A stretch of 64,000 nucleotides of DNA from Verrucomicrobiales bacterium (GCA_016793885.1 JAEUHE010000236.1:15876-79875), one strand, 5' to 3'; positions 10,315 to 44,129 are shown, counted from the stretch's first letter. Numbers and translations: made by a program. Notes: a model not told the origin generated them from the sequence alone.

Positions 10315-10317
10315 AGG

Positions 10318-21934: not shown

Positions 21935-21952
21935 AGTGAAGGAGGGGAGAGA

Positions 21953-22462: not shown

Positions 22463-22504
22463 AGGGTCTGTCGTGTGTTTCACGCTGAGAAGGAGAGAAT
22501 CACC

Positions 22505-23005
22505 ATGGCTTTCCTATTCATGCTGGCGGCGGAGTGCGGACAACATCGGAGGTCTGCCGAGCTCATTGTTCAACACTTCGAGAGCATCCGATTCGAGTTG
22601 TCGGATGGCAATAGTATTGGGTTTAGCCACGATCCAGGGGCTATCTGGACCCGGGGAGACGTGATCTGGTGCTGGGCGATTCCGGACGGAGTCAGCGCGG
22701 GTGGACTCCCACAACGGGTCTGCACGACAGCTGCAAGAGTAGAACTTACAAAACTTATCCATGCGGAGCTAAGATTGCTTAAGGGATTCCGGTTTGCGTT
22801 GGTGGGATGGGAAGCTGCTTTAGGCCCGGACTGGAACGAGATCGTGAAAGAGGTAGCGACTCCCGAGTTGCTACCGCCTGGGCTTATCATTGACGACGAT
22901 CTCTACAGGACTTTGGGTTGTCCTAACGGGTTCGAGCCCTTCGGGGAGGGAACTTGGTGGCGACCCGTGTCCGACGAGGTTTATACCCAGATCATCGCAT
23001 TCTAA
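22505..23005 (+). CDS. putative immunity protein (paralogue 2)
   Basis: Track ORF 22475..23005. ATG 22505 aligns with the start of paralogue 1 and is preceded by AAGGAGAG. Confidence 0.6.
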   Translation: MAFLFMLAAECGQHRRSAELIVQHFESIRFELSDGNSIGFSHDPGAIWTRGDVIWCWAIPDGVSAGGLPQRVCTTAARVELTKLIHAELRLLKGFRFALVGWEAALGPDWNEIVKEVATPELLPPGLIIDDDLYRTLGCPNGFEPFGEGTWWRPVSDEVYTQIIAF

Positions 23006-24752: not shown

Positions 24753-24777
24753 GGTGCGGTAGTCTAGTCTTAGGCGG

Positions 24778-26043
24778 TCAGTGGGCGGCTTTACCAGAGA
24801 CGGCGGCGGCATGCGCTGAAAACGACACCCCTCGGCCGGTTGGATTGATGACGGAATCGATCACTCCGCTCTCGAACTCCTCCCACATGGGCGACATGGC
24901 CCGCAGTTTGGTGACGATCTTGGAGAAGGATTCCACGACGTAGTCAACCTCCTCCTCCGTGTTGTCCTGGCCCAAAGTCATGATGATGTTTCCCTGCGCC
25001 AGGGCATGGTCGAGTCCAATGGCTGCCAACACATGCGAGATCTTCAGCGATTTGCTCACACAACTTGACCCGCTGGCCACGGCGATTCCAGCGACATCCA
25101 GGCTGAGCAGCTGTCCTTCGCCTTCAATAAACTCAGTGCTCAGGTTCAGGTTGGTGGAGATCCGCTCGGGCCCGGGCTCCGGCCCGTTGAGCTTGATGTA
25201 AGGAATCTTCTCTTTGAGCCCCTTCCATAGACGAGCTTGGAGGCGCGCCGTGTGGGCTGCGCGGGCAGGCATTTCGCGCACGGCAATCTCGGCGGCCAGG
25301 CCGCCACCAACGATTGCGGGCACATTTTCGGTTCCGGCGCGGCGTCCGCCTTCTTGGACGCCACCATGCAGGATGCTCACGAGTCGGGCTTTCCGATTCC
25401 GATACAGGATCCCGACGCCCTTGGGCCCGTAGAAACGATGCGGGGAAAAGGAGACCAGGTTGGCTCCCATGGCCTGAACATCGATGGGTAACCATCCGGC
25501 GCTGGCTTCGCAATCGACGTAGAACGGGATCGACTTCTCATTCAACAGCCGGCCGATCTCGGCGATGGGCTGGATCGTGCCAATGTCGTGGTTCACGTGG
25601 TGAACCGCCACCAGCACGGTCTTGTCGGTGAGCGCGGCAGCGACATCCGCCGGTTTGATCCGGCCTTCGGCATCGACCGGCACGCGGGTGCAGGTCCAAC
25701 CCTGTTTCTCCAGAAACTCCACCGAATTGACGACGGAGGGATGTTCGGTTGCGGAAATCACCAGGTGCTTGCCGCGACGCTCGTTCGCATAGGCAACGCC
25801 TTTGATGGCCAAGTTCGCCGACTCGGTGCCATCCGAGGTGAAGAAAATCTCTTCCTCGCTTTCGGCGTTGATCATCGCCGCGATGCGCGCGCGCGCCTTC
25901 TTGAGTGCATCCCGAACCTGAAGTCCGTAGTGATGGAGCGAGCTGGGATTGCCGAAGGCCTCGGTGAAAAAGGGTTTCATCTCCTCGAAAACCTCGGGGA
26001 GGAGGGGCGTTGCCGACTGATGATCGAGAAACACGTGTTTCAT
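24778..26043 (-). CDS. iscS: group I cysteine desulfurase (NifS/IscS type, PLP-dependent)
   Basis: The 421-aa ORF reads MKHVFLDHQSATPLLPEV...FGNPSSLHHYG. A class-V aminotransferase pattern is present. The catalytic-loop Cys is in ASGSSCVS. The C-terminal MSPMWEEF resembles the IscS LSPLWEMY tail. Confidence 0.85.
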   Translation of the reverse strand: MKHVFLDHQSATPLLPEVFEEMKPFFTEAFGNPSSLHHYGLQVRDALKKARARIAAMINAESEEEIFFTSDGTESANLAIKGVAYANERRGKHLVISATEHPSVVNSVEFLEKQGWTCTRVPVDAEGRIKPADVAAALTDKTVLVAVHHVNHDIGTIQPIAEIGRLLNEKSIPFYVDCEASAGWLPIDVQAMGANLVSFSPHRFYGPKGVGILYRNRKARLVSILHGGVQEGGRRAGTENVPAIVGGGLAAEIAVREMPARAAHTARLQARLWKGLKEKIPYIKLNGPEPGPERISTNLNLSTEFIEGEGQLLSLDVAGIAVASGSSCVSKSLKISHVLAAIGLDHALAQGNIIMTLGQDNTEEEVDYVVESFSKIVTKLRAMSPMWEEFESGVIDSVINPTGRGVSFSAHAAAVSGKAAH

Positions 26044-26242
26044 AGCTGTGTAAGGCTCTACTGCGAAGTGCCAAGGGTGACGAGAAAGTTTTTTCTTTCC
26101 TGCGGGAAGGATTCACCTTTCGCAGGTCGCGAATTGTCCTATCGGACGCAAGAATGCTCCAGCAACGGCGCGTCGAAGGCTGAGACCCCTGGAACCATCA
26201 GGTTCTCCGGGGCGTACGAAGGAGGCGAGTGGAGCTCGCGAA

Positions 26243-26665
26243 TCAGACCGTGGCTGCGGTCTTGGCGGTCTCGGTGGATTCCGGATTCTTTTTGACGTAA
26301 TCCTCGAGAGCGGCCTTGAGGGCTTCCTCGGCGAGCACCGAGCAATGGATCTTTACCGGGGGGAGGCCTCCGAGGGCATCCACGACCTCTTGATTGGAGA
26401 AGCTCATGGCCTCCTCGATAGTGCGACCCTTGATGAGTTCGGTGGCCATGCTGGAACTGGCGATCGCGGAGCCGCAGCCGAAGGTCTTGAACCGCGCATC
26501 CTCGATGCGGCCGTTCTTGATCTTCAAACTGATTTTCATGATGTCTCCGCAGGCGGCAGCGCCGACTTCGCCGATACCATCGGCGTCCTTGATGTCCCCC
26601 ATGTTGCGGGGATTCAGGAAGTGATCCATCACGGTTTGATTATACAGAGTGTAGGTTTCGCTCAT
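26243..26665 (-). CDS. iscU: Fe-S cluster scaffold protein IscU/NifU N-terminal type
   Basis: Track ORF 26243..26854, but Met64 (ATG at 26663-26665, checked) gives the canonical start MSETYTLYNQTVMDHFLNPRNMG. The three scaffold cysteines are present (AACGD, FGCGSAIASSS, IHCSVLAE). The longer version would overlap the Rrf2 gene. Confidence 0.9.
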   Translation of the reverse strand: MSETYTLYNQTVMDHFLNPRNMGDIKDADGIGEVGAAACGDIMKISLKIKNGRIEDARFKTFGCGSAIASSSMATELIKGRTIEEAMSFSNQEVVDALGGLPPVKIHCSVLAEEALKAALEDYVKKNPESTETAKTAATV

Positions 26666-26691
26666 GTGGCTTGTCCTCGTTGAAATTGTTG

Positions 26692-27165
26692 TCAGTTCTT
26701 TATTGAAAGGGCTTCGGTCGCCTCGCGGGCTTTGGCGCGCGCACGGGCGGCGCCGGCGGGAAGGTGTTTCTTTTCCAGGTCCGCAATCGTGGTGCGGGCG
26801 AAGACATCCTTCACCTGGTCCTGGGCTTGCTCGAACACGCTGCACAAGGCGCAACCTTCCTGGCGCTCACAGCTGGAGGCACTTTGAAGGCAGCGTTGGA
26901 GAGCCATCTTGCCCTCGATGGCTTCGAAGACTTCGAGGAGAGTGATCTGTTCGGCGGACCGGGCGAGGGTAAACCCGCCGCCGGAGCCGCGAACCGACCG
27001 AACCAATCCCGCTCGTGCCAGGCTCTGGAAGATCTTGCTCATGAAACTTGGCGGAGCGTCTTCCTCCTGGCTAATCTCCTCCACCATGACCGTTTGCCCC
27101 GGCGCTCGGCGCGCCAGGCAAATGAGCCCCATGGCTCCGTATTCGACTGCTCGAGTAATTTGCAT
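26692..27165 (-). CDS. Rrf2-family transcriptional regulator (IscR-like)
   Basis: The 157-aa ORF starts MQITRAVEYGAMGLICLARR and has a wHTH block (ISQEEDAPPSFMSKIFQSLARAGLVRSVRGSGGGFTLA). A Cys cluster, CLQSASSCERQEGCALC, is suited to an Fe-S ligand set. It is the first gene of the Fe-S operon. Confidence 0.85.
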   Translation of the reverse strand: MQITRAVEYGAMGLICLARRAPGQTVMVEEISQEEDAPPSFMSKIFQSLARAGLVRSVRGSGGGFTLARSAEQITLLEVFEAIEGKMALQRCLQSASSCERQEGCALCSVFEQAQDQVKDVFARTTIADLEKKHLPAGAARARAKAREATEALSIKN

Positions 27166-28654: not shown

Positions 28655-29935
28655 TTATGATTTTGGGGCCCACTCGTTCAGGGCGCGTTCGGGCAGTGAC
28701 GGTCCTTCAGCGGGCTGGAGCAGCTCGAGCGCTTGGCCGACCAGGTACAGGGAGCCTGCAATCACTGAGAGCTCGGCATCCCGGGTTGACCGCAGCGCTG
28801 CAGCTACCGTGTCCGCCTTTTCGATGCGGAGTTGTGGGGCACGCGATCGACAGAAGGGCTCGAGTTCATCCGGTGTGGCGGTGCGGTTGCTGTCCACCCG
28901 CACCAAAACCAGTCGCTTCATGAGCGGGAGCAGGACCTCGATCATGGTTTCCCAAGCTTTATCCTTGAGCACTCCGAGGACGAAGACAGCCTGTTGACCT
29001 GGGTATTCTGATTCCAGTGTGTCCCGAAGCACTTGGGCTCCATCCGCGTTGTGTGCACCATCTAAAATATGGATGGTTCGGGGGGAGGCGACCCGCTGAA
29101 ACCGGCCCGGCCAGGTCGTCTGTTCGAGCCCTTGCTTTCGGGCCGCCAGCGAGACGGGCAGCTGATGGTTGAGCGTTTCGACGGTGGCCAGTGCGACGGA
29201 AGCGTTCTGCCGCTGGTGCGGGCCTGGCAACGGAAGCTGGACGCCATGGAGCCCCGGTGACTCGGCCGTTTCCGTGGTCAGCAGACGCAGTGGGGCGCTC
29301 TTCAACCGGCAAACCTCCCGCAAAACCAGTTCCACCTCCGGTTGCTGGGGGGCGCTGACACAGGGGATGGCTGGTTTGATGATCCCGGCTTTCTCGGCGG
29401 CGATCTTGGCCACCGTGTCTCCGAGCCATTGCTGGTGATCGAGGCCGATGCGCGTGATCACGCTCGCCAAAGGAGTGACAATGTTCGTGGCGTCCAACCG
29501 ACCTCCGAGGCCGGTTTCCCAGACCACCACATCGCAGCGCTCGTCTGCAAAGTGGAGCAGGGCCATGAGGGTTACCACCTCGAAGAACGTCGGATGATCC
29601 GGCTCGCTCAGTTTCGTCAAGGCTGGCCGTATTCGGTTCAACAGATCCACCACTGCTGCTTCCGGCAGAAGCCGACGGTTGATCTGGATGCGCTCGCCGA
29701 AGTGCACAAGGTGGGGTGAGGTGAAGAGGCCCACCTTGAGTCCACTCGCCCGATACATGCTCTCCAGGAAGGCACAGGTTGAGCCTTTGCCGTTGGTTCC
29801 TGCCACATGGATGAAACGCAGCCGTTCCTGCGGTGAACCCAGTTCGGCCGCGAGTTGGACGGTGCGTTCCAGTCCAAGTCGCATGCTGAACTGGCCCAAC
29901 CCGTGGAGGAATTGGATCGCTTCCTGATAGGTCAT
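28655..29935 (-). CDS. folC: folylpolyglutamate synthase / dihydrofolate synthase (Mur ligase family)
   Basis: The 426-aa ORF has a P-loop (HVAGTNGKGST), then FTSPHL and GLGGRLDATN motifs and a C-terminal Mur-ligase domain. ATG checked at 29933-29935, 43 nt downstream of the megasynthase stop. Confidence 0.8.
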   Translation of the reverse strand: MTYQEAIQFLHGLGQFSMRLGLERTVQLAAELGSPQERLRFIHVAGTNGKGSTCAFLESMYRASGLKVGLFTSPHLVHFGERIQINRRLLPEAAVVDLLNRIRPALTKLSEPDHPTFFEVVTLMALLHFADERCDVVVWETGLGGRLDATNIVTPLASVITRIGLDHQQWLGDTVAKIAAEKAGIIKPAIPCVSAPQQPEVELVLREVCRLKSAPLRLLTTETAESPGLHGVQLPLPGPHQRQNASVALATVETLNHQLPVSLAARKQGLEQTTWPGRFQRVASPRTIHILDGAHNADGAQVLRDTLESEYPGQQAVFVLGVLKDKAWETMIEVLLPLMKRLVLVRVDSNRTATPDELEPFCRSRAPQLRIEKADTVAAALRSTRDAELSVIAGSLYLVGQALELLQPAEGPSLPERALNEWAPKS

Positions 29936-29978
29936 CGCCCCGACGATGCCCCAGGCGGACGCGAAGGTCCATCCCCGG

Positions 29979-32900
29979 TTAGCCGAGCTTGTCGATGCGT
30001 GACTTGAGCTCGGTCGCCAGCAGCTGGACGTAGGGTTCGACCAACATGGCGTGGGGATTCACGGGTAGTTCGACCGGATCGATTCCACCCTTGGCTAGAT
30101 CCCCCCAGCCCATCTTGGGATCTGGGTAGTAGTCGTAATTAACCTTAGGTTTGAAGAGCGTGAGGGTGCCGGCATAGGGCTTCGGCTCGTAGCGATCGCA
30201 GGCAGCGTCGTTGCTCGCCTGGACGGAAGCCTCGCGAAGTTGTGTGGGTTCGTCGGAACCCGGGGATGCCGGCTCGGCCGGCCCTTTGCGACTCAGGAGG
30301 TTCGCCAGTTCCCCGTCCCGCGCGACCCGGGCCTTCTCCTTGATGTATTTGACCATTTCGCCCGGGCTGAGCTTCACGAAGTTTCCGACGTGGAACTTCA
30401 TTTTCTGCAAGAGGTGGCTGGTTGAATTCGTTTTGAGTGCGAGCCCGAAATTGTAGGTGTCGAGCATCGCCAATAGCCTGGTGGTCTCACCGGCCTTCAG
30501 AAGCATCTGGGCCATCTCGTAGGCGATGGTTCCGCCCATGCAATATCCGCCCAGCAAGTAGGGGCCCTTGGGCTGGATTTTCCGAACTTCTTTGAGATAG
30601 AGCGCCGCCATTTCTTCGAGGCTGTTAAGCGGGGGCGTTTTCGCGTCGAGTCCCTGCGACTGCAAGCCGTAGAGCGGGTAGTCCGGCGCTAGGTGTCGGG
30701 CCAGAGCCTGATAGAGCAGGACATTGCCGCCGGCTCCGTGGACTAGGAACAGCGGGCGCTTGTTGCCGCGAGGTTGAATGGGCACCAGCGGCGACCAGTT
30801 CTCGTCCGTTGACTCCTCCACCTCACCGGTCAGCGCTCGAGAGAGTTGTTCGATGGTTGGTGATTTGAACAGCGTGGCGAGCGGCAGTTTCTTGCCGAAT
30901 TCCTTTTCGATCCTCGCGAAGAGGGCGACGGCACGGAGCGACTGTCCGCCCAGGTCGAAGAAATTGCTCCGGATGCTGATTCGCTCCAGCTTGAGGATCT
31001 CGCTCCAGATCTGGGCTAGTTTCTTTTCGGTCGCGTTCCGCGGAGGTACGAAGTCGTCCGCGGTATGGTCCTGGCTCGGTCCGGGATGCGGCAAAGCCCG
31101 GCGGTCGATCTTCCCATTCGGCGTTTGGGGCAGCTTGGGCAGAACCACGAAATGACACGGAACCATGTATTCGGGCAGGCTGGCTCGGAGGAGAGCTTTG
31201 AATTCTGCGCGGGCGCTGGCCTCGTCGAGTGATCCTGGTCCCCCGTTGGGCACGATGTAGGCAACGAGGGCCGGGTGTCCGGGAGACTCATCGGTTAGAA
31301 TCACGGCGGCTTCCTTGAGTTTGGGGGAGGTCAGCAGCACGGTTTCGATTTCACCCAGTTCAATGCGATGTCCCCGAAGCTTGACCTGAAAATCGATGCG
31401 GCCGAGGCATTCAATTTCCCCGTTCGGGAGGAAACGAGCCAGGTCGCCGGTGCGATAGACTCGCGGGCTTGAAGCGGAGCTGAAGGGATTGGGAATGAAC
31501 TTCTCCTCGGTCAGCGCCGAACGGTTGCGATAGCCGCGCGCCAGGCCCAGACCTCCGATCAGCAACTCTCCGGCAACGCCGATGGGGACCGGCTGGAGTT
31601 GGCTGTCCACGATATAGGTCTGGGTATTGGCTATGGGCTTTCCTATGGAGATGGGCTGGTCCTTCTTCAGTTGGACGGCAGTGGACCAGATCGTGGTTTC
31701 CGTTGGACCGTAAACGTTCCAGAGGGATCCGCAGCGGCTCAGGAGTTTTTCTGCCAGATCGGCGGCCATCGGTTCTCCCCCGCAGAGCAACTTAAGCTTA
31801 GGACCGCCCCGCCAATTTGAGGCGGCCAGCATGCGCCAGGTTGTGGGTGTCGCCTGCGCCAGGGTGATTCCGGTGCGGCTGATCAGGTCACTGAGGATGG
31901 CCGGATCGAGGGCGGCAGTCCGCGGAGCGATCACGATCTTGGCCCCGCTGATTAACGGCAAGAACACCTCCAGGCCCGCGATATCGAAAGAGAGCGTGGT
32001 CAAGGCCAAGACCACATCTTCTGGAGTGATCCCCGGCTGCCGCCGCATGGAGATCAGGAAGTTGGCGAAGGCGCGATGGGTTATTTCTGCGGCCTTCGGG
32101 GTTCCTGTGCTTCCTGAGGTGTAAATGGCATAGGCAAGGTCATCTGGATGAATCGGGCGCGAAACGGGACCCTGGCTTTCCGCTAGCAGCGCATCGCGTT
32201 GGCCATCCATGGATATGACTCGGATCTTGGTGGAGCCCAGTCGAGCCTGGAGGGATTGTTGCGAGAGGACGATCTTGGCCCCGGAGTCGCTGAGCATCGA
32301 CGTGATGCGCGCGGTGGGCACCTCGGGATCGATCGGCACATAGGCGGCTCCTGCTTTGAGGATGCCAAGCAACCCGATCACCATATCCAAGGAGCGCTCG
32401 AGGCAAACCGCCACCACCGAGTTGGGAGCGGCCCCTACTTTCGCCAAGTGGTGAGCCACCTGATTCGACCGTGCATCCAGTTCGGCGTACGAGAGCCGCT
32501 GGCCCTCGAACTCCACCGCAACCCGCTTGGGCGTCTGTCGTGCTTGCACGGTGCAGAGTTCAACCACGCTCGCCTGCTCCGGCAATTCCAGCGTGGTTTG
32601 GTTCCATTCGACCAGGATCTGGTGCCGCTCGGCCTGATTCAACAGGGAGAGCTGGCCAATCGGAGTCGCCGGGTCTGCGACGATCGATTCCAAAAGAGTT
32701 TGGAAATGTCCGACCCAGCGGCGGATCGATTCCGCATCGAACATGTTGCGGTTGTAATCGCACTCCACCAGGAGGTGATCGCCCTCGTCGACCAGGTTAA
32801 AGCCGAGGTCGTATTGGAAGAAGAAGCGGGGCCCCGCCGTGATCTTCTGACTGAGTCCGGAGAACCTGACCTTGTTGAGCGGCGGGTCCAGGTTAAAGAG

Positions 32901-35900
32901 CACGGAAGCCAGTGGGATACGGCTGGGATCGCGCGGGATGTCCAGTTTTTGAGCGATGGATCCGAATGTGGTGTTCCAGTTTTCCTGGGTGTCGAGGACC
33001 AACCCCAGAGCGTTCTTCAGAAGTGTGTTGAAAGGTTCCGCTGGGTTTACCGCAGCCCGAAGCGGCAGCGTGTGCACGCATTGCCCCACCAGCGTTTCGC
33101 TGCCCATGGCGCTCTGGCCTGCATACGGCACACCAATCACGATGTCGTTCAGCCCGCTTAGGCGATGCAGCCAAACCTGATAAGCGCCCAGCAGCAGCGC
33201 GAAGGGGGTGTTGCGTTGCGACTGCGCAGTTTTCTTGATGGACTGGAAGAGACTGGCAGGCAGGCGCAAGCTGTGGCGCTCGCCTTCATAAGTGCGGTTC
33301 TTGGGGCGCGGGCGGTAAGAGGGCAGATCCAGCGGCGCGGGGACATCGGGAAATCTGGCCAGCCAGAAGGCCTCCGACTGAACGGCGATCTCCTGTTGTT
33401 CGGGGCGGCCGAGCCACTCCGCATAGTTGCGCATGGGGACGATCGGACGCAGGGAGGGGACACGATCCTCCACATAGGCCGAATACAGCTCACTGATCTC
33501 CTCTAGCACGACGTTGTAGCCCCATCCGTCGCAGACAATCATGTTCAGGCTGAACACCAGCATGTGCTCGGATTGGGACAACTTGATGATATGGAAGGTG
33601 ACCAACGGCCCTTCATTCAGATCATAGAGCCGCTGTCCCTCCTGTTGGAGAATCTGGGCCGTTTCCGATTCTCGTTCGACTTGAGGCAGGTCGCTGAAAT
33701 CATGGACCGGCACATCGATCGTGATCGACGGGTGGATCAGGATGCACATGCCGTCGGCACTGAAGGTGGATCGAAGCGCCTCATGGCGGTCGATGATCTG
33801 GTGGATGGCGCGGCGCAGGCACTCGATGTTGAGCGGCCCGCGCAACTGCACGACATTGCTGGCATTGAACGCGCCGGAGGCCTCCGGCTGAATCTGCGTC
33901 GAGAGCCACATCTCCTTCTGGGAATCGGTCAGGGAGCAGCTTCTGGTTCCGGGTGGCAGGCCGGGAATTTCCTGGGTGTCCGGGCGCGTGCGGGCAGAGA
34001 CCGTGGTCGGGGTGGCACCCGAGGGCGGAGGAGTGGGTGCTCCCGGGGGAAGCGTTGCCTGCGTGCTCGCGATCTGCGCGAATTCAGCATCGCTGGTGCC
34101 GGGCAGGAAGCCGCCCAATTGCATCTCGGCGACCGCCTCCTTAAACGCCCGCGAAACGTAACTCAGATCCGCCTCGGTGTGTGCCAGTGTGAAATAGCAG
34201 GGCCTCCCTTCCCAGACATGAACCCCCTTCAAGCGCATGAAGTACCAGAGCAGGCTGATGAACTCGAGGTCATGCGCGTGTTCGATGTTCGCGAATGCGC
34301 AGAAGTGCGGGAAACGGATGGGTACCTGGTTACGTTCGAAGTATTGGTTCAACTCCGTGCAGAATTTGGTCACTCGGTCCGTGATGCCTAACTGAAGCTG
34401 CGGGCCTTCTTGCTGGAGTTTCTTCAGGATGGTCCAAGCGGCACGGATCGCCAAGGGATGTCGGACGAACGTTCCTGCAAAGAACGTGACGCCCACTTCG
34501 GGGAAGGAATCATCACCGTAGTTCCAGGCGCCGCCATCGAGCGCGTCCATATATTGACGCTTGCCGGCCAGGACTCCGATTGGGATGCCTCCCCCAATGA
34601 CTTTGCCGTAGGTCGCCATATCCGCTTCCACACCAAAATACGCCTGCGCGCCGCCCGGGTGGCAGCGGAAACCGGTGACCACTTCGTCGAAGATGAGCGC
34701 GGCTTCGGCGTCGCGCGTGATCTGGCGCAGCGCCTTCATGAACTCCTTCGGCTGGAGCCCCGGGGAGCGGCTCTGAACAGGCTCGACCAAGACGGCGGCG
34801 ATCTCGTGGATGTGGGCTTTGATGACCTCGAGCGACTCAGGGACGCCGTACTCGAGGATCAGCATGTTCTCGACGAGGCTGGACGGGATTCCCGGGGCGA
34901 TGGCCTGGGCTCGGTATTCCCCGTTGACCCAGGCGCCGCGAACGAGCACCTCCTCGAACATCCCGTGGTAATCGCCCGTGAAGTAAACCACCCGTTTGCG
35001 ACCGGTGATGGTGCGCGCGAGCCGGATCGCGGCCATGACCGCTTCGGAGCCAGTGTTGCAGAAGGTGGCGCGGTCCATCCCGGTGAACTCGCAGATCATT
35101 TTCGCCACCTCACCGGCCAGGGCTGACTGTGGCCCGATTTCTATGCCGGTATCCAGCTGGTCGTGCAGCGGCTGGATGAGCCAGTCGGGCGAATGCCCGA
35201 AGAAGTAAGTGCCGAACCCCATCGTGATGTCGACATACTCGTTCCCATCGAGATCCCAGATTCGGGAGCCCTTGGAGCGCGTGGACACAATGGGGTAGAC
35301 CATCTCCTTCCAATTGCGCTTGAACCCGGCGACAGCCCGGGGGTCGGCGAAGTGCGGCCGGTGCTCGGCGGTGTACTTCTTGGAGCCGCCAGTTTTCGCC
35401 TGGTATCGGGCGAGTAGCTGATTGAGCGCTCCCTCCTGAACGGCGGTTAGACCACCTTTCTGTCCCTTCTCGATGGGCTTGTAGGGGCCGAAGCGTTTAA
35501 ATTCCTGCTGGGCCGTCGCCACGGCGTGGGCGGGAGGTTTCGCTCCCGGCCAGCGAATGGTTGGTAATGAGCTGGCTGGACTTCCGGACGTGCTCGTCCC
35601 TGCGGGGATGGCGGCCGGTGTGGGCGCAACCTGGCCCTTCTGCTGGGCCAGTAGCAGCTGCATGAGCTGGATCTGTTGAGCCATCAACTGCTCCATCATG
35701 TTGCCGCCGGCAGGCGCCGCAGCAATCGGAGTCGCGTTGAGCGGCGAGGAATTCATGCTCAGTGCTGTCGGCGGTGGCGTGGCCGCCGGGGCTGCTGAGG
35801 CACTGGCGGCCGGCGTGACCGGAGCGGGAGCGGGAAGCGCGTCGGCGGGCAGCTTGTTGTCAATGTAGCTGGCCAGGGCGTCGACGCTCGAGAGATCCCC

Positions 35901-38900
35901 CAGCATCTGTCGGAAAGTGAGCTTGAGGTTGAATTTTTGCTGAAACGCCTGGCTGGCTTGCGTCAGGAACAAGGAGTCGAAGCCCAGTTCCATGAAGGAG
36001 GCGCTATCGTTTGTGACATCGACTCCCGAGAGCTCTTTCACGATCGCGCGCAGTTGCACTGCAATTCGATTGCGGCGCGGCTCGGCGGGGGGAAGGGCGG
36101 GCACAGACATAACAACAGGGGGAGGAGACACGCTGGCGGGCGGAATCGCGATCGTTGGCGACGTCGCTGGCATCGGCGACGCCAGGGGGAGGGGGGCTGG
36201 CATCGCTGGGACGGAGACTGGGATGGAAACCGGGGCTGGGCCCGCTGAGGCTGCCGGGTTTACCGGTGCGACCCAGAACCGCTGACGTTCGAATGGGTAG
36301 GTGGGCAGGGCGACCCGTCGGCGGGACTCTTCGCGACTAAAGTCACTCCACCCGACACGAACCCCGCTCGCCCAGAGTCGGCCGAGCGCACTCAGCATCG
36401 AGTTGAGATCTCGGCCAGGGGCATCGGTCGGACCCAAACTGCCTGCGATGACGAGCCCAGAGGGCTTCGCCGGATGCTGCCGAGCCAGCTGGCTCAAGGT
36501 TTGTCCGGGACCGATCTCCAGAATAATGTTCTTCTCATCCCTGATCACCGTTTCCAGGGCCTCTACAAATCGAACTGATTGGCGAAGTTGTTTTGCCCAG
36601 TAGGTGCCATCCTGCAGGTCGCTTGGTGACAATGCCCGGCCGGTGCAGGTGGAGATCCAAGGCAATTGAGGAGCTTGATGGGGAGTCTTCGCTGCCAGTG
36701 CGGTGAACTCGGCCAGCATGGGATCCATCATGGACGAGTGGAAGGCATGCGAGGTGGGGAGGAAGCGAGAGGCGATCTTCTTCGCTTCGAGCGTTTTCTG
36801 GAATTCCTCGAGCGTGGGAGTTGGACCCGCCACGGTGCACAGCTTGGGACTGTTAAACGCCGCGATCGAGGCGTCACGAGGAAGGAGGGGTGCCGTTTCT
36901 TCGCCGCTTAGCCGAACCGCCAGCATGGATCCTGCGGGTAGGCTCTGCATGAGCTTGGCTCGCGAGGCAAGGAGGTCCAAAGCGGCTTCCAGAGTGAAGG
37001 TCTCAGCCAGAACGGCGGCGACGTACTCGCCGATGCTATGTCCGATGAGTAGGCTGGGCTTAATTCCCCACGAGAGCCAGAGCTGGGCAAGGGCATATTC
37101 CACCACAAAGATGGAAGGCTGGGTGATCCAGGTTTTATTGATCTCTGTCTCCGCCGCCGGGCGCTGGTCTGGCGAAGGATAGAGGACGCGCCTAATATCC
37201 AGTCCCAGGCGGTTCTGGAGAATGCTGGCGCATTGATCGATCGCTGCGCGAAAGGCGCTTTCGGTTTCGTAGAGTTCCCGCCCCATGTCGACGTATTGAG
37301 CCCCCTGTCCGGGAAACAGAAATACAACCGAGGGTTCGGCTGAGGATGCTTTCGATTGGTGATCCGTCTTGGCATCGGGTTGGCGGAGATGAGCTGATGC
37401 CTCCTGGTGGTTGGAGACCACGACGGATCTGCGGTAGGTAAAGCCTTTGCGGCCCTGCTGCAACGTGAAAGCGACATCGGGCAAGGGCACGGAGGGGGAG
37501 GCGTCCAGGAACGCCGCCAGCCTCTCAGACATGGCGCGAAGGGCTGTTTCGGTCTTGGCCGAAAGAACGAGCAGCTGTTGCCGGCGTGATGGGCCGCCGG
37601 GTGTTCGGAGGGGGGCTTCCTCTACGATCACATGGGCATTGGTGCCGCCGACACCGAAAGCGCTTACGCCGGCTCTTCGCGGCTGGGCCCCCCGCTTCCA
37701 TTCCAGCGGACGGGTGACTGGATAGAATGGGCTGTTGGCAAAGTCGATTTTTGGATTGGGTGCCTTGAAATGGAGCAGCGGCGGGATCAATTCGTGCTGC
37801 AGCTGCAGCACTGTCTTGATCAGCCCGGTGGCGCCTGCAGCCACGTCCAGATGTCCGATGTGAGTCTTTCCGGTGCCGATCGCGCAGAATCCCACTTTGG
37901 TGGATCCGCCCTCACGAAAGGCTTTGGTCAAAGCGGTGATCTCGATCGGATCGCCGAGGGGCGTTCCGGTTCCGTGGGCCTCGATGTAGGAAATCGATTC
38001 CGGATCCACGCCGGCGGCGGCCTGAGCCAACGCGATGACATCGGCCTGGGCGTTGATGCTGGGCGCGGCATATCCGATCTTGGCTGAACCATCATTGTTG
38101 ATGGCGGTTCCTTTGATGACCGCGAGCACCTGGTCTCCATCGGCCACCGCATCGGCGAGCCGTTTGAGCAGAACGACCGCCACTCCATGACCGAAAACGG
38201 TTCCGTGCGCGGAAGCGTCGAAGGTTCGGCAAGTGCCATCGCCGGAAACCATGCCTTCCTCCTGATAGAGGTAGTTGCGCTTTTGCGGGAAGCTGATCGA
38301 GGATCCACCGGCCAGCGCCATGTCGCACTGGTAGGTCAGCAAGCTGGTGCAAGCTTGGCTGATCGCCACCAAGGAGGTTGAGCACGCGGTTTGGATCGAC
38401 ATGCTTGGTCCGCGCAGGTTCAGCTTGTAGGACACCCGAGTGGGAAGGAAATCCTTGTCGTTCCCGAGCATCACCTGATAGGCACCCACCTGATAGTTGC
38501 CCGAGAAGTTGGCGGCGAACTCCCGGTCTCGGCACAGGTTGCTGAGCAAGTAGGTATTCAGGCTCAACCCACCGTACACGCCGATCATTCCGGGGTACGA
38601 CTCCGGATCGTAGCCAGCTCCCTCGATGGCTTCCCAGGAGCATTCGAGGAACAGGCGGTGCTGCGGATCCATGATCTCAGCCTCCTTGGGATAGATCCCG
38701 AAGAAAGCCGCGTCAAATTGGTCGACCCCTTCGAGTATGCCCCGGGCGGCGACAAATTTCTGGCCCTGCGCCTTGGCCTCCGGGCTCGCCACCGAAAATT
38801 CTAGTTCCTCCTCCGAGAACACGGAGATGGTCTCACGGCCCGCCATCAGATTGTCCCAGAACTCTTGGACTGACCGCGCCCCGGGGAAGCGGCCGGACAT

Positions 38901-38957
38901 GCCCACAATGGCGATGCCTTCGAGTTGGCTTGGATCGATTGAAGTATTACTGGACAT
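29979..38957 (-). CDS. hybrid PKS-NRPS megasynthase: KS-AT-ACP-aminotransferase(class III)-C-A-PCP-TE
   Basis: 2992 aa; residue numbers below come from hand counting. KS aa ~13-440 (TACSTSL with Cys192, EAHGTGT, GHLDVAAG). AT ~545-860 (GHSIGE, HAFH). ACP ~965-1035 (LGFDSL). Aminotransferase ~1195-1615 (NTGSEAVMAAIRLAR, DEVVTGFR, YGKVIGGG). C ~1675-2100 (RHEALRSTF; C3 reads NMIVCDG). A ~2130-2620 (YTSGSTGTPKA, NVYGPTETT, YRTGDLARF, PNGKIDRRAL). PCP ~2645-2710 (FFDLGGQSL). TE ~2730-2992 (LVHGAGGN, GGYCMGG). Confidence 0.9.
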   Translation of the reverse strand: MSSNTSIDPSQLEGIAIVGMSGRFPGARSVQEFWDNLMAGRETISVFSEEELEFSVASPEAKAQGQKFVAARGILEGVDQFDAAFFGIYPKEAEIMDPQHRLFLECSWEAIEGAGYDPESYPGMIGVYGGLSLNTYLLSNLCRDREFAANFSGNYQVGAYQVMLGNDKDFLPTRVSYKLNLRGPSMSIQTACSTSLVAISQACTSLLTYQCDMALAGGSSISFPQKRNYLYQEEGMVSGDGTCRTFDASAHGTVFGHGVAVVLLKRLADAVADGDQVLAVIKGTAINNDGSAKIGYAAPSINAQADVIALAQAAAGVDPESISYIEAHGTGTPLGDPIEITALTKAFREGGSTKVGFCAIGTGKTHIGHLDVAAGATGLIKTVLQLQHELIPPLLHFKAPNPKIDFANSPFYPVTRPLEWKRGAQPRRAGVSAFGVGGTNAHVIVEEAPLRTPGGPSRRQQLLVLSAKTETALRAMSERLAAFLDASPSVPLPDVAFTLQQGRKGFTYRRSVVVSNHQEASAHLRQPDAKTDHQSKASSAEPSVVFLFPGQGAQYVDMGRELYETESAFRAAIDQCASILQNRLGLDIRRVLYPSPDQRPAAETEINKTWITQPSIFVVEYALAQLWLSWGIKPSLLIGHSIGEYVAAVLAETFTLEAALDLLASRAKLMQSLPAGSMLAVRLSGEETAPLLPRDASIAAFNSPKLCTVAGPTPTLEEFQKTLEAKKIASRFLPTSHAFHSSMMDPMLAEFTALAAKTPHQAPQLPWISTCTGRALSPSDLQDGTYWAKQLRQSVRFVEALETVIRDEKNIILEIGPGQTLSQLARQHPAKPSGLVIAGSLGPTDAPGRDLNSMLSALGRLWASGVRVGWSDFSREESRRRVALPTYPFERQRFWVAPVNPAASAGPAPVSIPVSVPAMPAPLPLASPMPATSPTIAIPPASVSPPPVVMSVPALPPAEPRRNRIAVQLRAIVKELSGVDVTNDSASFMELGFDSLFLTQASQAFQQKFNLKLTFRQMLGDLSSVDALASYIDNKLPADALPAPAPVTPAASASAAPAATPPPTALSMNSSPLNATPIAAAPAGGNMMEQLMAQQIQLMQLLLAQQKGQVAPTPAAIPAGTSTSGSPASSLPTIRWPGAKPPAHAVATAQQEFKRFGPYKPIEKGQKGGLTAVQEGALNQLLARYQAKTGGSKKYTAEHRPHFADPRAVAGFKRNWKEMVYPIVSTRSKGSRIWDLDGNEYVDITMGFGTYFFGHSPDWLIQPLHDQLDTGIEIGPQSALAGEVAKMICEFTGMDRATFCNTGSEAVMAAIRLARTITGRKRVVYFTGDYHGMFEEVLVRGAWVNGEYRAQAIAPGIPSSLVENMLILEYGVPESLEVIKAHIHEIAAVLVEPVQSRSPGLQPKEFMKALRQITRDAEAALIFDEVVTGFRCHPGGAQAYFGVEADMATYGKVIGGGIPIGVLAGKRQYMDALDGGAWNYGDDSFPEVGVTFFAGTFVRHPLAIRAAWTILKKLQQEGPQLQLGITDRVTKFCTELNQYFERNQVPIRFPHFCAFANIEHAHDLEFISLLWYFMRLKGVHVWEGRPCYFTLAHTEADLSYVSRAFKEAVAEMQLGGFLPGTSDAEFAQIASTQATLPPGAPTPPPSGATPTTVSARTRPDTQEIPGLPPGTRSCSLTDSQKEMWLSTQIQPEASGAFNASNVVQLRGPLNIECLRRAIHQIIDRHEALRSTFSADGMCILIHPSITIDVPVHDFSDLPQVERESETAQILQQEGQRLYDLNEGPLVTFHIIKLSQSEHMLVFSLNMIVCDGWGYNVVLEEISELYSAYVEDRVPSLRPIVPMRNYAEWLGRPEQQEIAVQSEAFWLARFPDVPAPLDLPSYRPRPKNRTYEGERHSLRLPASLFQSIKKTAQSQRNTPFALLLGAYQVWLHRLSGLNDIVIGVPYAGQSAMGSETLVGQCVHTLPLRAAVNPAEPFNTLLKNALGLVLDTQENWNTTFGSIAQKLDIPRDPSRIPLASVLFNLDPPLNKVRFSGLSQKITAGPRFFFQYDLGFNLVDEGDHLLVECDYNRNMFDAESIRRWVGHFQTLLESIVADPATPIGQLSLLNQAERHQILVEWNQTTLELPEQASVVELCTVQARQTPKRVAVEFEGQRLSYAELDARSNQVAHHLAKVGAAPNSVVAVCLERSLDMVIGLLGILKAGAAYVPIDPEVPTARITSMLSDSGAKIVLSQQSLQARLGSTKIRVISMDGQRDALLAESQGPVSRPIHPDDLAYAIYTSGSTGTPKAAEITHRAFANFLISMRRQPGITPEDVVLALTTLSFDIAGLEVFLPLISGAKIVIAPRTAALDPAILSDLISRTGITLAQATPTTWRMLAASNWRGGPKLKLLCGGEPMAADLAEKLLSRCGSLWNVYGPTETTIWSTAVQLKKDQPISIGKPIANTQTYIVDSQLQPVPIGVAGELLIGGLGLARGYRNRSALTEEKFIPNPFSSASSPRVYRTGDLARFLPNGEIECLGRIDFQVKLRGHRIELGEIETVLLTSPKLKEAAVILTDESPGHPALVAYIVPNGGPGSLDEASARAEFKALLRASLPEYMVPCHFVVLPKLPQTPNGKIDRRALPHPGPSQDHTADDFVPPRNATEKKLAQIWSEILKLERISIRSNFFDLGGQSLRAVALFARIEKEFGKKLPLATLFKSPTIEQLSRALTGEVEESTDENWSPLVPIQPRGNKRPLFLVHGAGGNVLLYQALARHLAPDYPLYGLQSQGLDAKTPPLNSLEEMAALYLKEVRKIQPKGPYLLGGYCMGGTIAYEMAQMLLKAGETTRLLAMLDTYNFGLALKTNSTSHLLQKMKFHVGNFVKLSPGEMVKYIKEKARVARDGELANLLSRKGPAEPASPGSDEPTQLREASVQASNDAACDRYEPKPYAGTLTLFKPKVNYDYYPDPKMGWGDLAKGGIDPVELPVNPHAMLVEPYVQLLATELKSRIDKLG

Positions 38958-38966
38958 GCAATTCCT

Positions 38967-40892
38967 TTAGCGTCGCCCGCGTTTGTTAGCCGCCGCGAGC
39001 GCTTCGCGTTGACGACGAGCCCTATCTTGGAGCGTGGCATTTCCGGCCGCCGCTGCGTGGGGAAGACCTAGAAACTCTGCTTGAGTGCGGACCGTGGTAG
39101 CGGCGAAAAGCTGCGTCAATGGGAACTCGCGTCCGACCAGGGCCTGCAGGCGCGTATGGAGTTGCGCCAACCGGATCGAATCCCCATCGACGTCGAAAAA
39201 GCTGATGTCGTGCCTGACATCGGATCGCGACAGAATCTCCCTCCACAGCGCTGCGATCTGGCCCTCCAGGTTCCCTCCGTTGGGGACAGGGGCCGAAGGT
39301 GAAGCGTCCGGTGCGGCGCGCTCGGCCAAAGCCCGGCGATCCACCTTCCCGTTCGGGGAGAGGGGAAACGAGTCCAGCACGCTCAGGGTCGACGGGACCA
39401 TATAATCCGGTAGCCTGTCCCGTAGAAACTGTTTCAGGCTGGCCGAGTCGGCCGACGCGCCATCCTTGAGTGTCACGTAGGCGGCGAGGGACTGCGCGCC
39501 TTCGTTCTCTTGGCGCCGGCAGGCGACCACCACGGGTTCGCGCACGGAAGGATGAAGCTGGAGCGCGTTTTCGATTTCACGCAACTCGACGCGGTAGCCT
39601 CGAACCTTGACCTGATGGTCCAGGCGTCCCAGGAACTCGATCACCCCGTCGGGGAGCCAGCGCGCCTGATCCCCCGAGCGATAGATAAGACTTCCTTCGA
39701 TCTCGGGCAGGGGGTTGGCGATGAAGCGCTGCTGGGTGAGGGTGGTATCATTGACGTAGCCAGCGCCTATCCCGGTTCCGCCGATGCAGAGTTCCCCCGG
39801 CGTTCCAATGGGACAGGGCCGAAGCTCGGGATCCAAAATTGCGATCTGGGCATTGTAGATGGGGCGGCCCAGTGGAACAAAGTCGTAACGGTCCAGGTTG
39901 TCACGAGTAAGCCGGTAGAAGCCGCAGATGTCGGTGCACTCCGTGGGGCCGTAGGTGTTCGCGACTTCGGCTCGTGACTTGGGATGAGTGATCCAGGTGC
40001 GCAACCGGGGTATCGAGATCGGTTCCCCGCCCAGACATACCACGCGCAAGGAACTGAGTCGGTTGGCCGTTTCTTCGGTGAACGGCTCGATCAATGGGTA
40101 GAACGCGCTGGGCGTGCAGTTGATGTAGGTGATCCCGTGTCGGGCGATCAGGCGTCCAAGCAGGGAGATATCATAAGGGCCCGGTGGATAGAGATGCAGG
40201 GTGCCACCCCGGATCAGCGGCGCATAGAGATTCTTTTGAGTCAGGTCGAAGCTAAGGGAACTGACCAGCAGCACGTGGTCCCGACTGTCGAAGTTGAACT
40301 CGGAGACGAACCAATGGATGAGGTTCGTAAATCCACGATGATAGACAGCTGCCCCTTTGGGAGCTCCGGTGGAACCGGACGTGAAGATCACGTAGATGAG
40401 ATCATCTGGAGTGGAGCCGGGCGTGGGGTTGTCGCTGCACTCCGAAGCAAATGCCGCGTCGCTCTCGTTCAGAGTCATTAACTCCAGATCAGGTCGGGAG
40501 GAAAACCTTCCCGCCAAGGCAGGGGAAGTCAGCAGCAGACGCAGCCTTGAACCTGAGATCATCGCGTCCAGCCGTTCGGCGGGGTAGGTGGGATCCAACG
40601 GAACGTAGGCACCGCCCGCTTTCAGAATCGCGTAGATGCCGACCAGCACCTCAATCGACCGCTCGAGTGAAACTCCGACCAGAGAATTGGCCTGAACGCC
40701 TTTCCGACGGAGGGCATGGGCCAGTTGGTTCGCCCGTCGGTTGAGCTCGCTGTAGGTGAGCGTCTTACCCTCAAACTCGACCGCCACCGCCTGGGGTGTT
40801 CGAGCGACCTGCTCCTCGAAAAGCTGGTGTACGCAGGCATGCCGGGGCCAATCAACCCGGGTGGCGTTGCTCTGAATACGTGGGTCGCTCAT
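38967..40892 (-). CDS. stand-alone NRPS loading module: adenylation domain + peptidyl carrier protein (A-T)
   Basis: The 641-aa ORF has the A-domain core motifs LTYSELNRRANQLA, LKAGGAYVPLDP, FTSGSTGAPKG, NTYGPTECT, GELCIGGTGIGAGY, YRSGDQARW and SPNGKVDRRAL. The carrier motif is FFDVDGDSIRLAQL. Its stop lies 9 nt before the KS gene ATG, which is preceded by AAGGA. Confidence 0.9.
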   Translation of the reverse strand: MSDPRIQSNATRVDWPRHACVHQLFEEQVARTPQAVAVEFEGKTLTYSELNRRANQLAHALRRKGVQANSLVGVSLERSIEVLVGIYAILKAGGAYVPLDPTYPAERLDAMISGSRLRLLLTSPALAGRFSSRPDLELMTLNESDAAFASECSDNPTPGSTPDDLIYVIFTSGSTGAPKGAAVYHRGFTNLIHWFVSEFNFDSRDHVLLVSSLSFDLTQKNLYAPLIRGGTLHLYPPGPYDISLLGRLIARHGITYINCTPSAFYPLIEPFTEETANRLSSLRVVCLGGEPISIPRLRTWITHPKSRAEVANTYGPTECTDICGFYRLTRDNLDRYDFVPLGRPIYNAQIAILDPELRPCPIGTPGELCIGGTGIGAGYVNDTTLTQQRFIANPLPEIEGSLIYRSGDQARWLPDGVIEFLGRLDHQVKVRGYRVELREIENALQLHPSVREPVVVACRRQENEGAQSLAAYVTLKDGASADSASLKQFLRDRLPDYMVPSTLSVLDSFPLSPNGKVDRRALAERAAPDASPSAPVPNGGNLEGQIAALWREILSRSDVRHDISFFDVDGDSIRLAQLHTRLQALVGREFPLTQLFAATTVRTQAEFLGLPHAAAAGNATLQDRARRQREALAAANKRGRR

Positions 40893-42725: not shown

Positions 42726-44129
42726 TCAACTCAGCAGCGACGGCACGATGTGCGCGCTGGTGACGTCGAAGTCGGTCAGGCTGGCCGCCCGGCCTTCATG
42801 CGGAAAGCTGAGGGCCTTGTGATCCACCCCGAGGGTGTGGAGCAGGGTGGCGTGGAAATCGGGCACGCTGACGACATCCTCGACGGAACGGTAACCGAAC
42901 TCGTCCGTGGCTCCGTGCACATGTCCGCCCTTGAATCCTCCGCCCGCCACCCACAGCGAGAAGGCATGCCGATTGTGATCCCGGCCGTCCTTGCCCTGCG
43001 ACACCGGCAAGCGGCCGAACTCGCCGGTCCAGAGCACCACCGTGGAATCCAGCAGCCCCCGAGCCTTGAGGTCCTTCACGAGGGCTGCGCTGGGCTGATC
43101 GGTTTTGGCGCACAGCCCCTTCAATCGCTCGGCATTCTTATCGTGCGTGTCCCAGGGTTGGCCATTGAGGAACAGTTGCACAAAGCGCACCCCGCGCTCG
43201 ATCAGCCGACGAGCCAGCAGACAGCGCCGTCCATATTCCTCGGTGACCGGATTGTCTAATCCGTAGAGCTTCTTGGTGGCGTCCGATTCACTCGACAGAT
43301 CCAGCGCCTCCGGAACCGCGCTCTGCATGCGGGCGGCCGTTTCGAAGTTGGCGATGCGGGCGTTGAGTTCGGTGTTCTCCGGGTAATGGGACGCGTGCTG
43401 CTGGTTGAGGGCCTTCAACAGGTTGAGCTGATTCAGGCGTGCCTGTGGCGGAGTCTTGGAGGGCGTCTGCAGGTTAAACACCGGGGAGTTTCCACTGCGG
43501 AACGGCGTTCCTTGATAGATGGCCGGCAAGAATCCCGATGACCAATTCCGCTCGCCGTCGACCGGCAACCCGCCGGGATCCGACAACACCACGTAGGCCG
43601 GTAGGTTCTCATTCTCCGAGCCCAACCCGTAGAGCACCCAAGCGCCCAGAGTCGGCAGCCCGGCCAAAAACCGTCCGGTGTGAATGATTCGCAGCGCGGA
43701 TTCGTGGTCCACGGACCCCGTTGTCATGGATCGAACCAGGGTTATGTCGTCCGCGATCGATCCCGTGTGCGGCAGCAACTCCGATAGGTGCATTCCACAC
43801 TGCCCGTGGCGATGAAACTCATAGGGGGCTCCCAGGACATTCCCGGCCTGCTTGTCGAAATGAATCTCCAGGTTGCCGCCGGGGTAGGGCTTTCCGCTCC
43901 ATTTGTTCAGCGCGGGTTTGTAGTCGAACAAATCCATCTGGCTCGGTCCGCCGTGCTGGAAGAGACTGATGATGGCCTTGGCCTTCGGTTGGTAGTGTCC
44001 CGGCTTGGCGGGATTGGAAGCGCCGGCTCGCGATCCCGCCAGGAGTTGTGACAAGGCAATGGCACCCAGCCCGCCGGCGGATCGACCGAGGAAGGCGCGT
44101 CGTGAAAGTGCAGACTCGATGGCATTCAT
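42726..44129 (-). CDS. DUF1501 domain protein, Tat-type signal
   Basis: Track ORF 42726..44171. I prefer ATG 44129-44127, which gives MNAIESALSRRAFLGRSAGGLGAIALSQLLAG and overlaps the upstream TGA (44128-44126) as ATGA (checked). The DUF1501 blocks match 8851..10314: HGGPSQMDLFDYKP, TGEFGRLP, GRDHNRH. Confidence 0.9.
   Translation of the reverse strand: MNAIESALSRRAFLGRSAGGLGAIALSQLLAGSRAGASNPAKPGHYQPKAKAIISLFQHGGPSQMDLFDYKPALNKWSGKPYPGGNLEIHFDKQAGNVLGAPYEFHRHGQCGMHLSELLPHTGSIADDITLVRSMTTGSVDHESALRIIHTGRFLAGLPTLGAWVLYGLGSENENLPAYVVLSDPGGLPVDGERNWSSGFLPAIYQGTPFRSGNSPVFNLQTPSKTPPQARLNQLNLLKALNQQHASHYPENTELNARIANFETAARMQSAVPEALDLSSESDATKKLYGLDNPVTEEYGRRCLLARRLIERGVRFVQLFLNGQPWDTHDKNAERLKGLCAKTDQPSAALVKDLKARGLLDSTVVLWTGEFGRLPVSQGKDGRDHNRHAFSLWVAGGGFKGGHVHGATDEFGYRSVEDVVSVPDFHATLLHTLGVDHKALSFPHEGRAASLTDFDVTSAHIVPSLLS

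Follow-up and report, generated by a model that had tools for sequence, protein, structure and literature searches.

The 64,000-nucleotide stretch of DNA analysed here (Verrucomicrobiales bacterium, GCA_016793885.1, JAEUHE010000236.1:15876-79875), referred to as the window, carries two adjacent minus-strand genes at 29979–40892 that constitute a real, intact and probably functional orphan cluster. To judge from their domains and motifs, they belong to a known kind of system, the hybrid nonribosomal peptide synthetase–polyketide synthase (NRPS–PKS) with an embedded aminotransferase (AmT), and fall within a large uncharacterised family that is primed by an amino acid. Within that family they form part of a distinct sub-clade, recognised by a condensation (C) domain that has lost its catalytic histidines (designated as C*) and by a thioesterase (TE) with a cysteine nucleophile (Cys-TE). 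In the reading that we favour with moderate confidence, the pair would be a functional, self-contained assembly line in which homoserine (Hse) is extended with a malonyl unit, transaminated, joined to glycine and released by the Cys-TE.

Architecture of the gene pair and its predicted substrates

The two open reading frames (ORFs) were found at 38967–40892 (641 aa) and 29979–38957 (2992 aa), exactly where the first-pass annotation had placed them. Pfam and the translated motifs agree on the domain order that it proposed, adenylation (A)–carrier (T) in gene 1 and ketosynthase (KS)–acyltransferase (AT)–acyl carrier protein (ACP)–AmT–C–A–T–TE in gene 2. The profile searches that it had suggested (KS, AT, PP-binding, Aminotran_3, Condensation, AMP-binding and Thioesterase) supported every one of these domains. 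Reading of the junction between the genes, CGC-TAA-AGGAATTGC-ATG, confirmed the 9-nt gap and the AAGGA ahead of the second start codon. The features of the pair are as follows.

38967–40892, minus strand: gene 1, loading module A1–T1, 641 aa (Pfam AMP-binding, E 6e-85; AMP-binding_C; PP-binding)
39345–40820, minus strand: A1 adenylation domain, homoserine-type code DLKNCGTDIK by alignment to GrsA PheA
39069–39260, minus strand: T1 carrier domain (Pfam PP-binding, residues 545–608), FFDVDGDSI with Ser572 at 39177–39179
38958–38966, minus strand: intergenic junction, 9 nt; the AAGGA Shine–Dalgarno site overlaps the gene 1 stop codon, 5 nt before the ATG
29979–38957, minus strand: gene 2, KS–AT–ACP–AmT–C*–A2–T2–TE megasynthase, 2992 aa (Pfam; full-length homologues at 48–97% identity)
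37767–38921, minus strand: KS (Pfam), Cys192 (TACSTS), His (EAHGTGT) and His (HIGHLD)
36474–37325, minus strand: cis-AT (Pfam), GHSIGE (Ser641) and malonyl-type HAFH
35838–36086, minus strand: ACP, second PP-binding stretch, LGFDSL with Ser995 at 35973–35975; Pro/Ala-rich linkers on both sides
34098–35297, minus strand: AmT, class III, similar to glutamate-1-semialdehyde aminomutase (GSAM) (Pfam Aminotran_3); pyridoxal phosphate (PLP) lysine K1452 in YGKVIGGG (34602–34604) and Asp in FDEVVTG
32613–33938, minus strand: C* condensation fold, positions 5–456 of the 456-position Pfam Condensation profile (E 5.8e-78)
33540–33545, minus strand: codons of N1805–M1806, in place of the HH of HHxxxDG; motif NMIVCDG
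31110–32549, minus strand: A2 adenylation domain, code DILQLGVIWK (Gly), core motifs A3, A5, A7, A8 and A10 intact
30831–31022, minus strand: T2 carrier domain, FFDLGGQSL with the phosphopantetheine Ser2673 at 30939–30941
30003–30758, minus strand: TE (Pfam Thioesterase) with Cys nucleophile C2806 (30540–30542) in GGYCMGG, D2833 and H2969

Gene 2 matched the N- and C-terminal ketoacyl-synt profiles (2e-72 and 2.5e-39), Acyl_transf_1 (1e-49), PP-binding in two stretches, Aminotran_3 (7e-45), Condensation (6e-78), AMP-binding (2e-92), AMP-binding_C and Thioesterase (5e-29), the E-values overall lying between 1e-27 and 1e-92. Chance cannot plausibly account for ORFs of such length with domain matches of such E-values. 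The stretches between the domains consist of Pro/Ala-rich linkers. The GC content at third codon positions (GC3) of the two ORFs is 0.71–0.74, and GC content across the region is flat. As had been proposed, gene 2 gave no Pfam match to a ketoreductase, dehydratase or enoylreductase at E ≤ 1e-3.

The catalytic motifs of A1, KS, AT, ACP, AmT, A2, T2 and TE are intact, and the non-canonical elements are the C motif and the cysteine nucleophile of the TE. The Cys–His–His triad of a condensing KS is present, and the HAFH motif bears out the assignment of a malonyl-type cis-AT. In the T1 motif FFDVDGDSI (39174–39200), an Asp occupies the place of the first Gly of the usual GGxS, where relatives have GGNSI, GGDSL or GGSSI. 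The linker between the ACP and the AmT includes a Gln/Leu/Met-rich segment, MMEQLMAQQIQLMQLLLAQQ (35661–35717, residues ~1081–1099), that resembles a short coiled coil or a docking element.

The nature of the starter was examined from gene 1. With the NCBIfam model for amino-acid adenylation (TIGR01733) it scored 419 bits, above the cut-off of 317, and Asp235 and Lys517 are present in A1, in agreement with the α-amino-acid starter that had been put forward. By these features A1 is clearly an amino-acid A domain and not a fatty-acyl ligase, and a fatty-acyl or aryl starter was rejected on the same two grounds. A fatty-acyl or polyketide chain entering the KS, as in the iturin or microcystin type, was likewise not found here, the loading module being an amino-acid A–T. 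Specificity codes were extracted by MAFFT alignment to GrsA PheA, using a GrsA sequence whose numbering agrees with the published motif positions. The codes reported for Hse or homoserine lactone are DLKNFGSDVK, DLKNVGSDVK and DLKNLGTDVK (PMC7524897, PMC12283262). Compared with the published Hse codes DLKNLGTDVK/DLKNFGSDVK, that of A1 matches at 8 of 10 positions, with Cys at 299 and Ile at 331, and because of this match the starter is probably L-homoserine. The A domain of the partner gene reads DLKN[FC]GTDIK in all six readable loci of the clade, although those proteins are only 50–58% identical.

A2 has the motifs YTSGSTGTPK, NVYGPTE, YRTGD, GRIDFQVKLRG and NGKIDR, as well as the required Asp235 and Lys517. 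Its code fits the glycine code DILQLG(L/M/V)(I/V)WK and is also found in dozens of related loci, which supports glycine as the second amino acid, as previously suggested. The best solved relative of the C–A–T region is LgrA, the linear gramicidin synthase subunit A (chain residues 792–1800).

The best solved relative of the AmT domain is the MycA AMT (6kfm; E 8.9e-139, 466 bits, query residues 3–444 of 461). This full-length match substantiates the description of the domain as a MycA-type in-line class III aminotransferase. The next-best relatives are glutamate-1-semialdehyde (GSA) 2,1-aminomutases at 188 bits or less, and the HemL models scored 229–243 bits. The lysine of the YGK motif (K1452) is invariant among the homologues. 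Since MycA AMT is a biochemically characterised β-ketothioester transaminase with glutamine as the donor (PMC3870968), the same function for the present AmT is supported by homology.

The condensation domain, the thioesterase and their evolution

Related loci were sought with an AmT-region alignment in one genome of each species; at least 589 were found, of which the best 80 were analysed. In the phmmer alignment of C* with Txo2 (6p1j), N1805 and M1806 fall exactly on the two histidines. Asn–Met or Gln–Met occupies this site in 24 of the 25 aligned full-length family proteins, the window included, and HH in the remaining one; HH is kept in 62 of the 84 sequences scanned (window and loci), which is nearly all of those with a readable motif. 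The replacement of the second histidine of motif C3 by Met is accompanied by further substitutions that are fixed in the clade at sites conserved among the HH domains; these are His to Gln in C5 (VGHC to VGQC), Tyr to Gln, Asn to Gln and Phe to Gly.

A neighbour-joining tree was constructed from 97 C domains located after an AmT. All of the QM and NM domains form one clade, every member of which has a Cys-TE, and the window lies in an NM sub-clade. The nearest outgroups combine HH with a Cys-TE. The tree indicates that the His-less C domain and the Cys-TE together mark one monophyletic clade, and that the change from HH to NM/QM arose once and was then kept.

The TE domain is without the GxSxG serine, and the cysteine in its place is conserved in all full-length homologues. 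Its best solved relative is AB3403 of Acinetobacter baumannii (4zxh, E 4e-25), in which GGWCFGG corresponds to GGYCMGG; the Asp of IDT/LDT and the His of GDH/NPH also line up. The terminal TE reported from the initial reading thus stands as a domain, but it is a Cys-TE (GGYCMGG) and not a standard Ser-TE. The entire C–A–T–TE region matches AB3403 (4zxh, 4zxi) at 589 bits, and as AB3403 also has the cysteine, a Cys-TE is not unprecedented in an ordinary C–A–T–TE module. AB3403 differs in being a stand-alone NRPS module of another cluster, with no PKS or AmT part. Its A domain also activates glycine. Cysteine likewise replaces serine in the TEs of ObiF1 and SulM, which form the β-lactone of obafluorin and the β-lactam of sulfazecin, respectively. 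ObiF1 (6n8e) is among the matches to the C–A–T–TE region (E 4.5e-119). In both enzymes, however, the ring closes on the side chain of the last residue itself, which in the present line would be glycine.

Selection was estimated by comparing the window with a metagenomic locus, L084, that is 97% identical to it (synonymous divergence, dS, ~0.2; protein-guided codon alignment). The two loci differ by a compensating pair of indels in the ACP/linker region. The ratios of nonsynonymous to synonymous substitution rates (dN/dS) are 0.006 for KS, 0.020 for AT, 0.081 for ACP, 0.035 for AmT, 0.037 for C*, 0.048 for A2, 0.032 for T2 and 0.019 for TE. From the values for C* and A2, both domains are under strong purifying selection in the lineage of the window. 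The gene pair is not decaying, and purifying selection acts on every catalytic domain.

Proposed pathway and alternative explanations

In the pathway that we favour, A1 would adenylate an α-amino acid, most likely L-homoserine, and load it onto T1. The KS would condense this starter with malonyl-ACP, loaded by the cis-AT, to give a 4-amino-6-hydroxy-3-oxohexanoyl thioester. The MycA-type AmT would then convert the β-keto group to an amine at C3, yielding a 3,4-diamino-6-hydroxyhexanoyl thioester, a vicinal (β,γ) diamine. A2 would load glycine onto T2, and the C* scaffold would be the site at which the diaminoacyl chain is coupled to it. Release by the Cys-TE might be hydrolytic, giving a linear dipeptide-like acid, or might proceed through attack of a free amine, giving a lactam. 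We infer the substrates, the order of the chemistry, amide formation at C* and the mode of release from domain content and motifs.

Several observations weigh against this pathway. The assignment of Hse is a match of 8 out of 10 code positions only. C* has NM for HH, along with concerted changes at other conserved positions, and for this reason canonical amide formation is not assured. A2 is intact in the branch of the window but is the fastest-evolving catalytic domain among the closer relatives, with 56–64% identity as against 81–90% for KS and 85–91% for AmT. In 12 sister proteins (P0012, P0015, P0016, P0018, P0021, P0032, P0036, P0038, P0044, P0056, P0067 and P0075), the A motifs A3, A7, A8 and A10 have been lost, and in P0065 the N-terminal two-thirds of the glycine A domain have been deleted; all of these proteins nevertheless retain C*, the serine of T2 and the Cys-TE. 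From this pattern, cis-loading of glycine is evidently not required for function in the clade. A free γ-amine beside the thioester could also lead to self-cyclisation of the chain before it reaches C*. Finally, the window is devoid of a phosphopantetheinyl transferase (PPTase) gene, and tblastn did not detect in it, nor is there in L084 or L086, the ~312-aa protein encoded next to the megasynthase in most clade members (see below). Of the amide bond to glycine claimed in the first-pass annotation, the glycine code of A2 therefore stands in its favour, while the loss of both HHxxxDG histidines from C* and the degenerate or deleted glycine A domains of the sister lineages stand against it. Coupling to glycine at C* is the weakest link of the pathway and is uncertain.

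These same features suggest a possible alternative, to which we give distinctly lower credence, in which C* no longer forms a peptide bond and has been repurposed for transfer of the chain from the ACP to T2 or for cyclisation. The Cys-TE would then free a cyclised β,γ-diamino acid, such as a γ-lactam (4-amino-5-(2-hydroxyethyl)pyrrolidin-2-one), a β-lactam or a diazepanedione, and glycine would be dispensable or used otherwise. This would be in line with a single HH to NM/QM change kept across a monophyletic Cys-TE clade, with the concerted active-site substitutions (His to Gln in C5, Tyr to Gln and Phe to Gly), with purifying selection on C* and with the retention of C*, the T2 serine and the Cys-TE in sister proteins whose A2 has lost its motifs or been truncated. 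However, the lineage of the window has an A2 with a perfect glycine code, all core motifs and low dN/dS, which would be difficult to account for if the line made no use of glycine. Moreover, there are C domains in which absence of the second histidine is tolerated, and the occurrence of a Cys-TE in the ordinary module of AB3403 means that this feature alone implies no unusual chemistry. Tentatively, the His-less C* and the Cys-TE might even constitute a new functional type of termination unit that hands over or cyclises an Hse-derived vicinal-diamine thioester to give a small lactam- or diazepanedione-type scaffold so far not known from nature, although we consider this doubtful. If it were true, the repeated decay of the glycine A domain in the sister proteins would be the evolutionary trace of the shift.

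The remaining explanations concern single elements of the line. That the same logic operates with another small polar starter on A1 (for example Ser, Thr, Dab or Asn) is unlikely. The imperfect code, with its Cys at 299 and Ile at 331, leaves room for it, and for rare substrates predictions of the Stachelhaus type frequently fail, but the DLKN..(T/S)D(I/V)K signature is distinctive, was assigned to Hse or homoserine lactone in two independent papers (PMC7524897, PMC12283262) and is conserved in partners of 50–58% identity and in verrucomicrobial relatives. It is very improbable that the AmT acts as a GSAM-like 1,2-aminomutase, which would swap the γ-amino and β-oxo groups via the diamine with no net transamination. 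An amino-acid starter would give the adjacent amino/oxo arrangement that GSAM isomerises, and the GSA 2,1-aminomutases do rank next after MycA; nevertheless, the domain is far closer to the MycA AMT (466 against at most 188 bits), a demonstrated Gln-dependent transaminase (PMC3870968). Equally hard to credit is a decaying, non-functional relic. The loss of the C histidine dyad, the lack of the gene for the ~312-aa protein and the absence of PPTase or transporter genes nearby would fit with one, but the 9-kb ORF is uninterrupted, dN/dS in the catalytic domains is 0.006–0.05 and the pair is conserved across homologues of 48–97% identity.

If the homoserine–malonyl–transamination logic is true, the pair would provide a compact Hse-derived β,γ-diamino acid unit, with or without glycine, in a phylum with few known natural products. 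Because the pair spans only 11 kb and comes without accessory genes, it lends itself readily to heterologous expression. The clade is also a natural experiment on the role that a condensation domain takes on after the loss of its catalytic histidines while selection keeps the fold, and it may show why glycine so often comes after amino-acid-primed AmT modules. As one orphan of a very large and widespread uncharacterised family, the cluster is useful rather than startling.

Distribution of the layout, related systems and genomic context

The domain order in the best 80 loci was determined by tblastn together with extraction of the A codes. A–T–KS–AT–ACP precedes the AmT in 49 of the 53 loci with enough upstream sequence, and a glycine-type code was read in 46 of the 65 that have C–A after the AmT. 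The identical ten-domain order, A–T–KS–AT–ACP–AmT–C–A–T–TE, was found in nine of the 80; five of these are in named cultured Bacteroidota, and the hosts include Spirosoma utsteinense, S. lacussanchae, Hymenobacter crusticola, Winogradskyella wichelsiae and Euzebyella marina. The starter codes across the loci are of the Val, Thr, Pro, Ser and Hse types. By these predictions, amino-acid-primed A–T–KS–AT–ACP–AmT–C–A(Gly) lines are common across many phyla. An A–CP–KS–AT–CP–PLP1 arrangement has been described in Pedobacter heparinus, with the cluster prediction Nrp–Mal–Gly–Pk, and Planctomycetes and Verrucomicrobia were listed among the phyla in which assembly lines of this kind contain embedded PLP domains (Milano et al., 2013; PMC3870968). 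In view of these counts and of that survey, the arrangement is not unusual at the genomic level, and the claim that an aminoacyl starter, a cis-AT, one NRPS module and a TE make it so does not hold.

The lines of P. heparinus (C6XWU5; Milano et al., 2013), Spirosoma, Hymenobacter, Winogradskyella, Euzebyella and Haloferula have the same starter logic and the same AmT-then-glycine order as the present one, but differ in that HHxxxDG is kept, the TE is mostly a Ser-TE and the starters vary (Val, Thr, Pro or Ser). For none of these lines is a product known. Six verrucomicrobial loci (L005–L010; Haloferula, Luteolibacter and Akkermansiaceae) have an Hse-type starter code and the closest AmT domains (72–74%). 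Their C domain keeps HH, one more module, for Val or Cys, is added, and the line terminates in a Ser-TE. These loci are probably ancestral-type relatives of the clade of the window.

Literature searches turned up no characterised amino-acid-primed AmT pathway with such logic and no characterised product, in agreement with the earlier statement that the line matches no known characterised pathway. The characterised AmT systems found in these searches (flavipulchrins, carenaemins and puwainaphycin) are all fatty-acyl-primed, and the predicted Hse-derived β,γ-diamino acid building block was not found in the searched literature. Solanimycin, a lead from NCBIfam SolG matches, was rejected as irrelevant, being a trans-AT system with a separate aminotransferase.

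Among the known systems, MycA of mycosubtilin and iturin (AMT structures 6kfm, 6kfr and 6kfu) is similar in having a GSAM-like AmT directly between a PKS carrier and a C domain. It is primed with a fatty acid through an acyl ligase and belongs to a long lipopeptide line, and its C domain is canonical; the present line, in contrast, has an Hse-type amino-acid starter, a cis-AT, a His-less C*, a single module and a Cys-TE. McyE and NdaF of microcystin and nodularin share the KS–AT–ACP–AmT–C–A–T core with a cis-AT, and a review mentions an AT–ACP–AMT order for microcystin. McyE differs in that it takes a long polyketide (the Adda precursor) and feeds a multi-module line; it lacks an aminoacyl starter, and its polypeptide does not end in a TE. 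The biotin enzymes BioF and BioA also perform a Claisen condensation onto an amino acid to form an α-aminoketone, which a class III aminotransferase converts to a vicinal diamine (7-keto-8-aminopelargonate, KAPA, to 7,8-diaminopelargonate, DAPA). The likeness is one of logic only, as these enzymes are free-standing and act on coenzyme A-linked or free substrates, and we claim no homology apart from the Aminotran_3 fold.

The A–T gene and the megasynthase gene occur together in quite different neighbourhoods among the relatives, and therefore the gene pair is the functional unit. Its neighbours in the window are housekeeping genes (folC and an Fe–S cluster assembly set), and so the cluster comprises two genes only. 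No tailoring enzyme, transporter, MbtH or PPTase gene was found within the 64-kb window, and scans for promoters and terminators on both flanks were uninformative. The neighbouring features are as follows.

28655–29935: FolC gene, downstream of the pair (TIGR01499, 387 bits against a cut-off of 163)
23682–27165, minus strand: Fe–S cluster assembly set (Mrp/ParA-type NTPase, NifS-like and NifU-like proteins), syntenic in L084; Rrf2-type regulator according to the L084 annotation
8851–13557 and 42726–47038, minus strand: two copies of a PSCyt/PSD1 (DUF1549/DUF1553) and DUF1501 pair; the same pair adjoins the homologous cluster in L003

The gene at 28655–29935 was considered as a Mur-ligase-like tailoring amide ligase and rejected, since it is FolC and, outside the relatives at 97% identity, does not adjoin the pair. 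An overlapping 337-aa ORF (28959–29972), 7 nt past the megasynthase stop codon, was also discarded; it has the wrong GC3 pattern and no similarity to the conserved downstream gene of the relatives. Beyond folC lie a gene for a SIS-domain protein and then the Fe–S assembly set. Upstream of the pair are a 3-keto-disaccharide hydrolase-family protein and the DUF1501 and PSCyt2/PSD1 pair. The PSCyt1/2, PSD1 and DUF1501 families in the window are typical of planctomycetes and support a planctomycete host, consistent with the earlier call of a Planctomycetes–Verrucomicrobia–Chlamydiae (PVC)-type genome. The relatives L003, L047 and L051 are planctomycete or Pirellulaceae loci.

In most members of the clade, the megasynthase gene is directly followed by a gene for a ~312–355-aa protein with internal repeats of ~110 aa (46–60% mutual identity), located as listed here.

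L003, 18964–20031: ~312–355-aa protein
L001, 19272–20210: the same protein
L087, 12720–13658: the same protein
L088, 16838–17785: the same protein
L046 and L028: also present

Neither NCBIfam nor the PDB yielded a match for this protein, and no Pfam domain is recorded for it. It is a candidate for a partner that the assembly line of the window lacks.

Other plus-strand regions of the window encode the following proteins.

20525–23005, plus strand: RHS-repeat-associated core protein (TIGR03696), 469 aa, followed by small ORFs of 169 and 176 aa
634–8466 and 55891–61977, plus strand: giant predicted surface proteins of 2610 and 2028 aa, with multiple lamin-tail (LTD), CotH and cadherin/Ig-like domains
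51089–55318, plus strand: 1409-aa protein with four CHRD domains and an N-terminal β-propeller

The RHS protein and the two small ORFs that follow it may represent a polymorphic toxin with its immunity genes.

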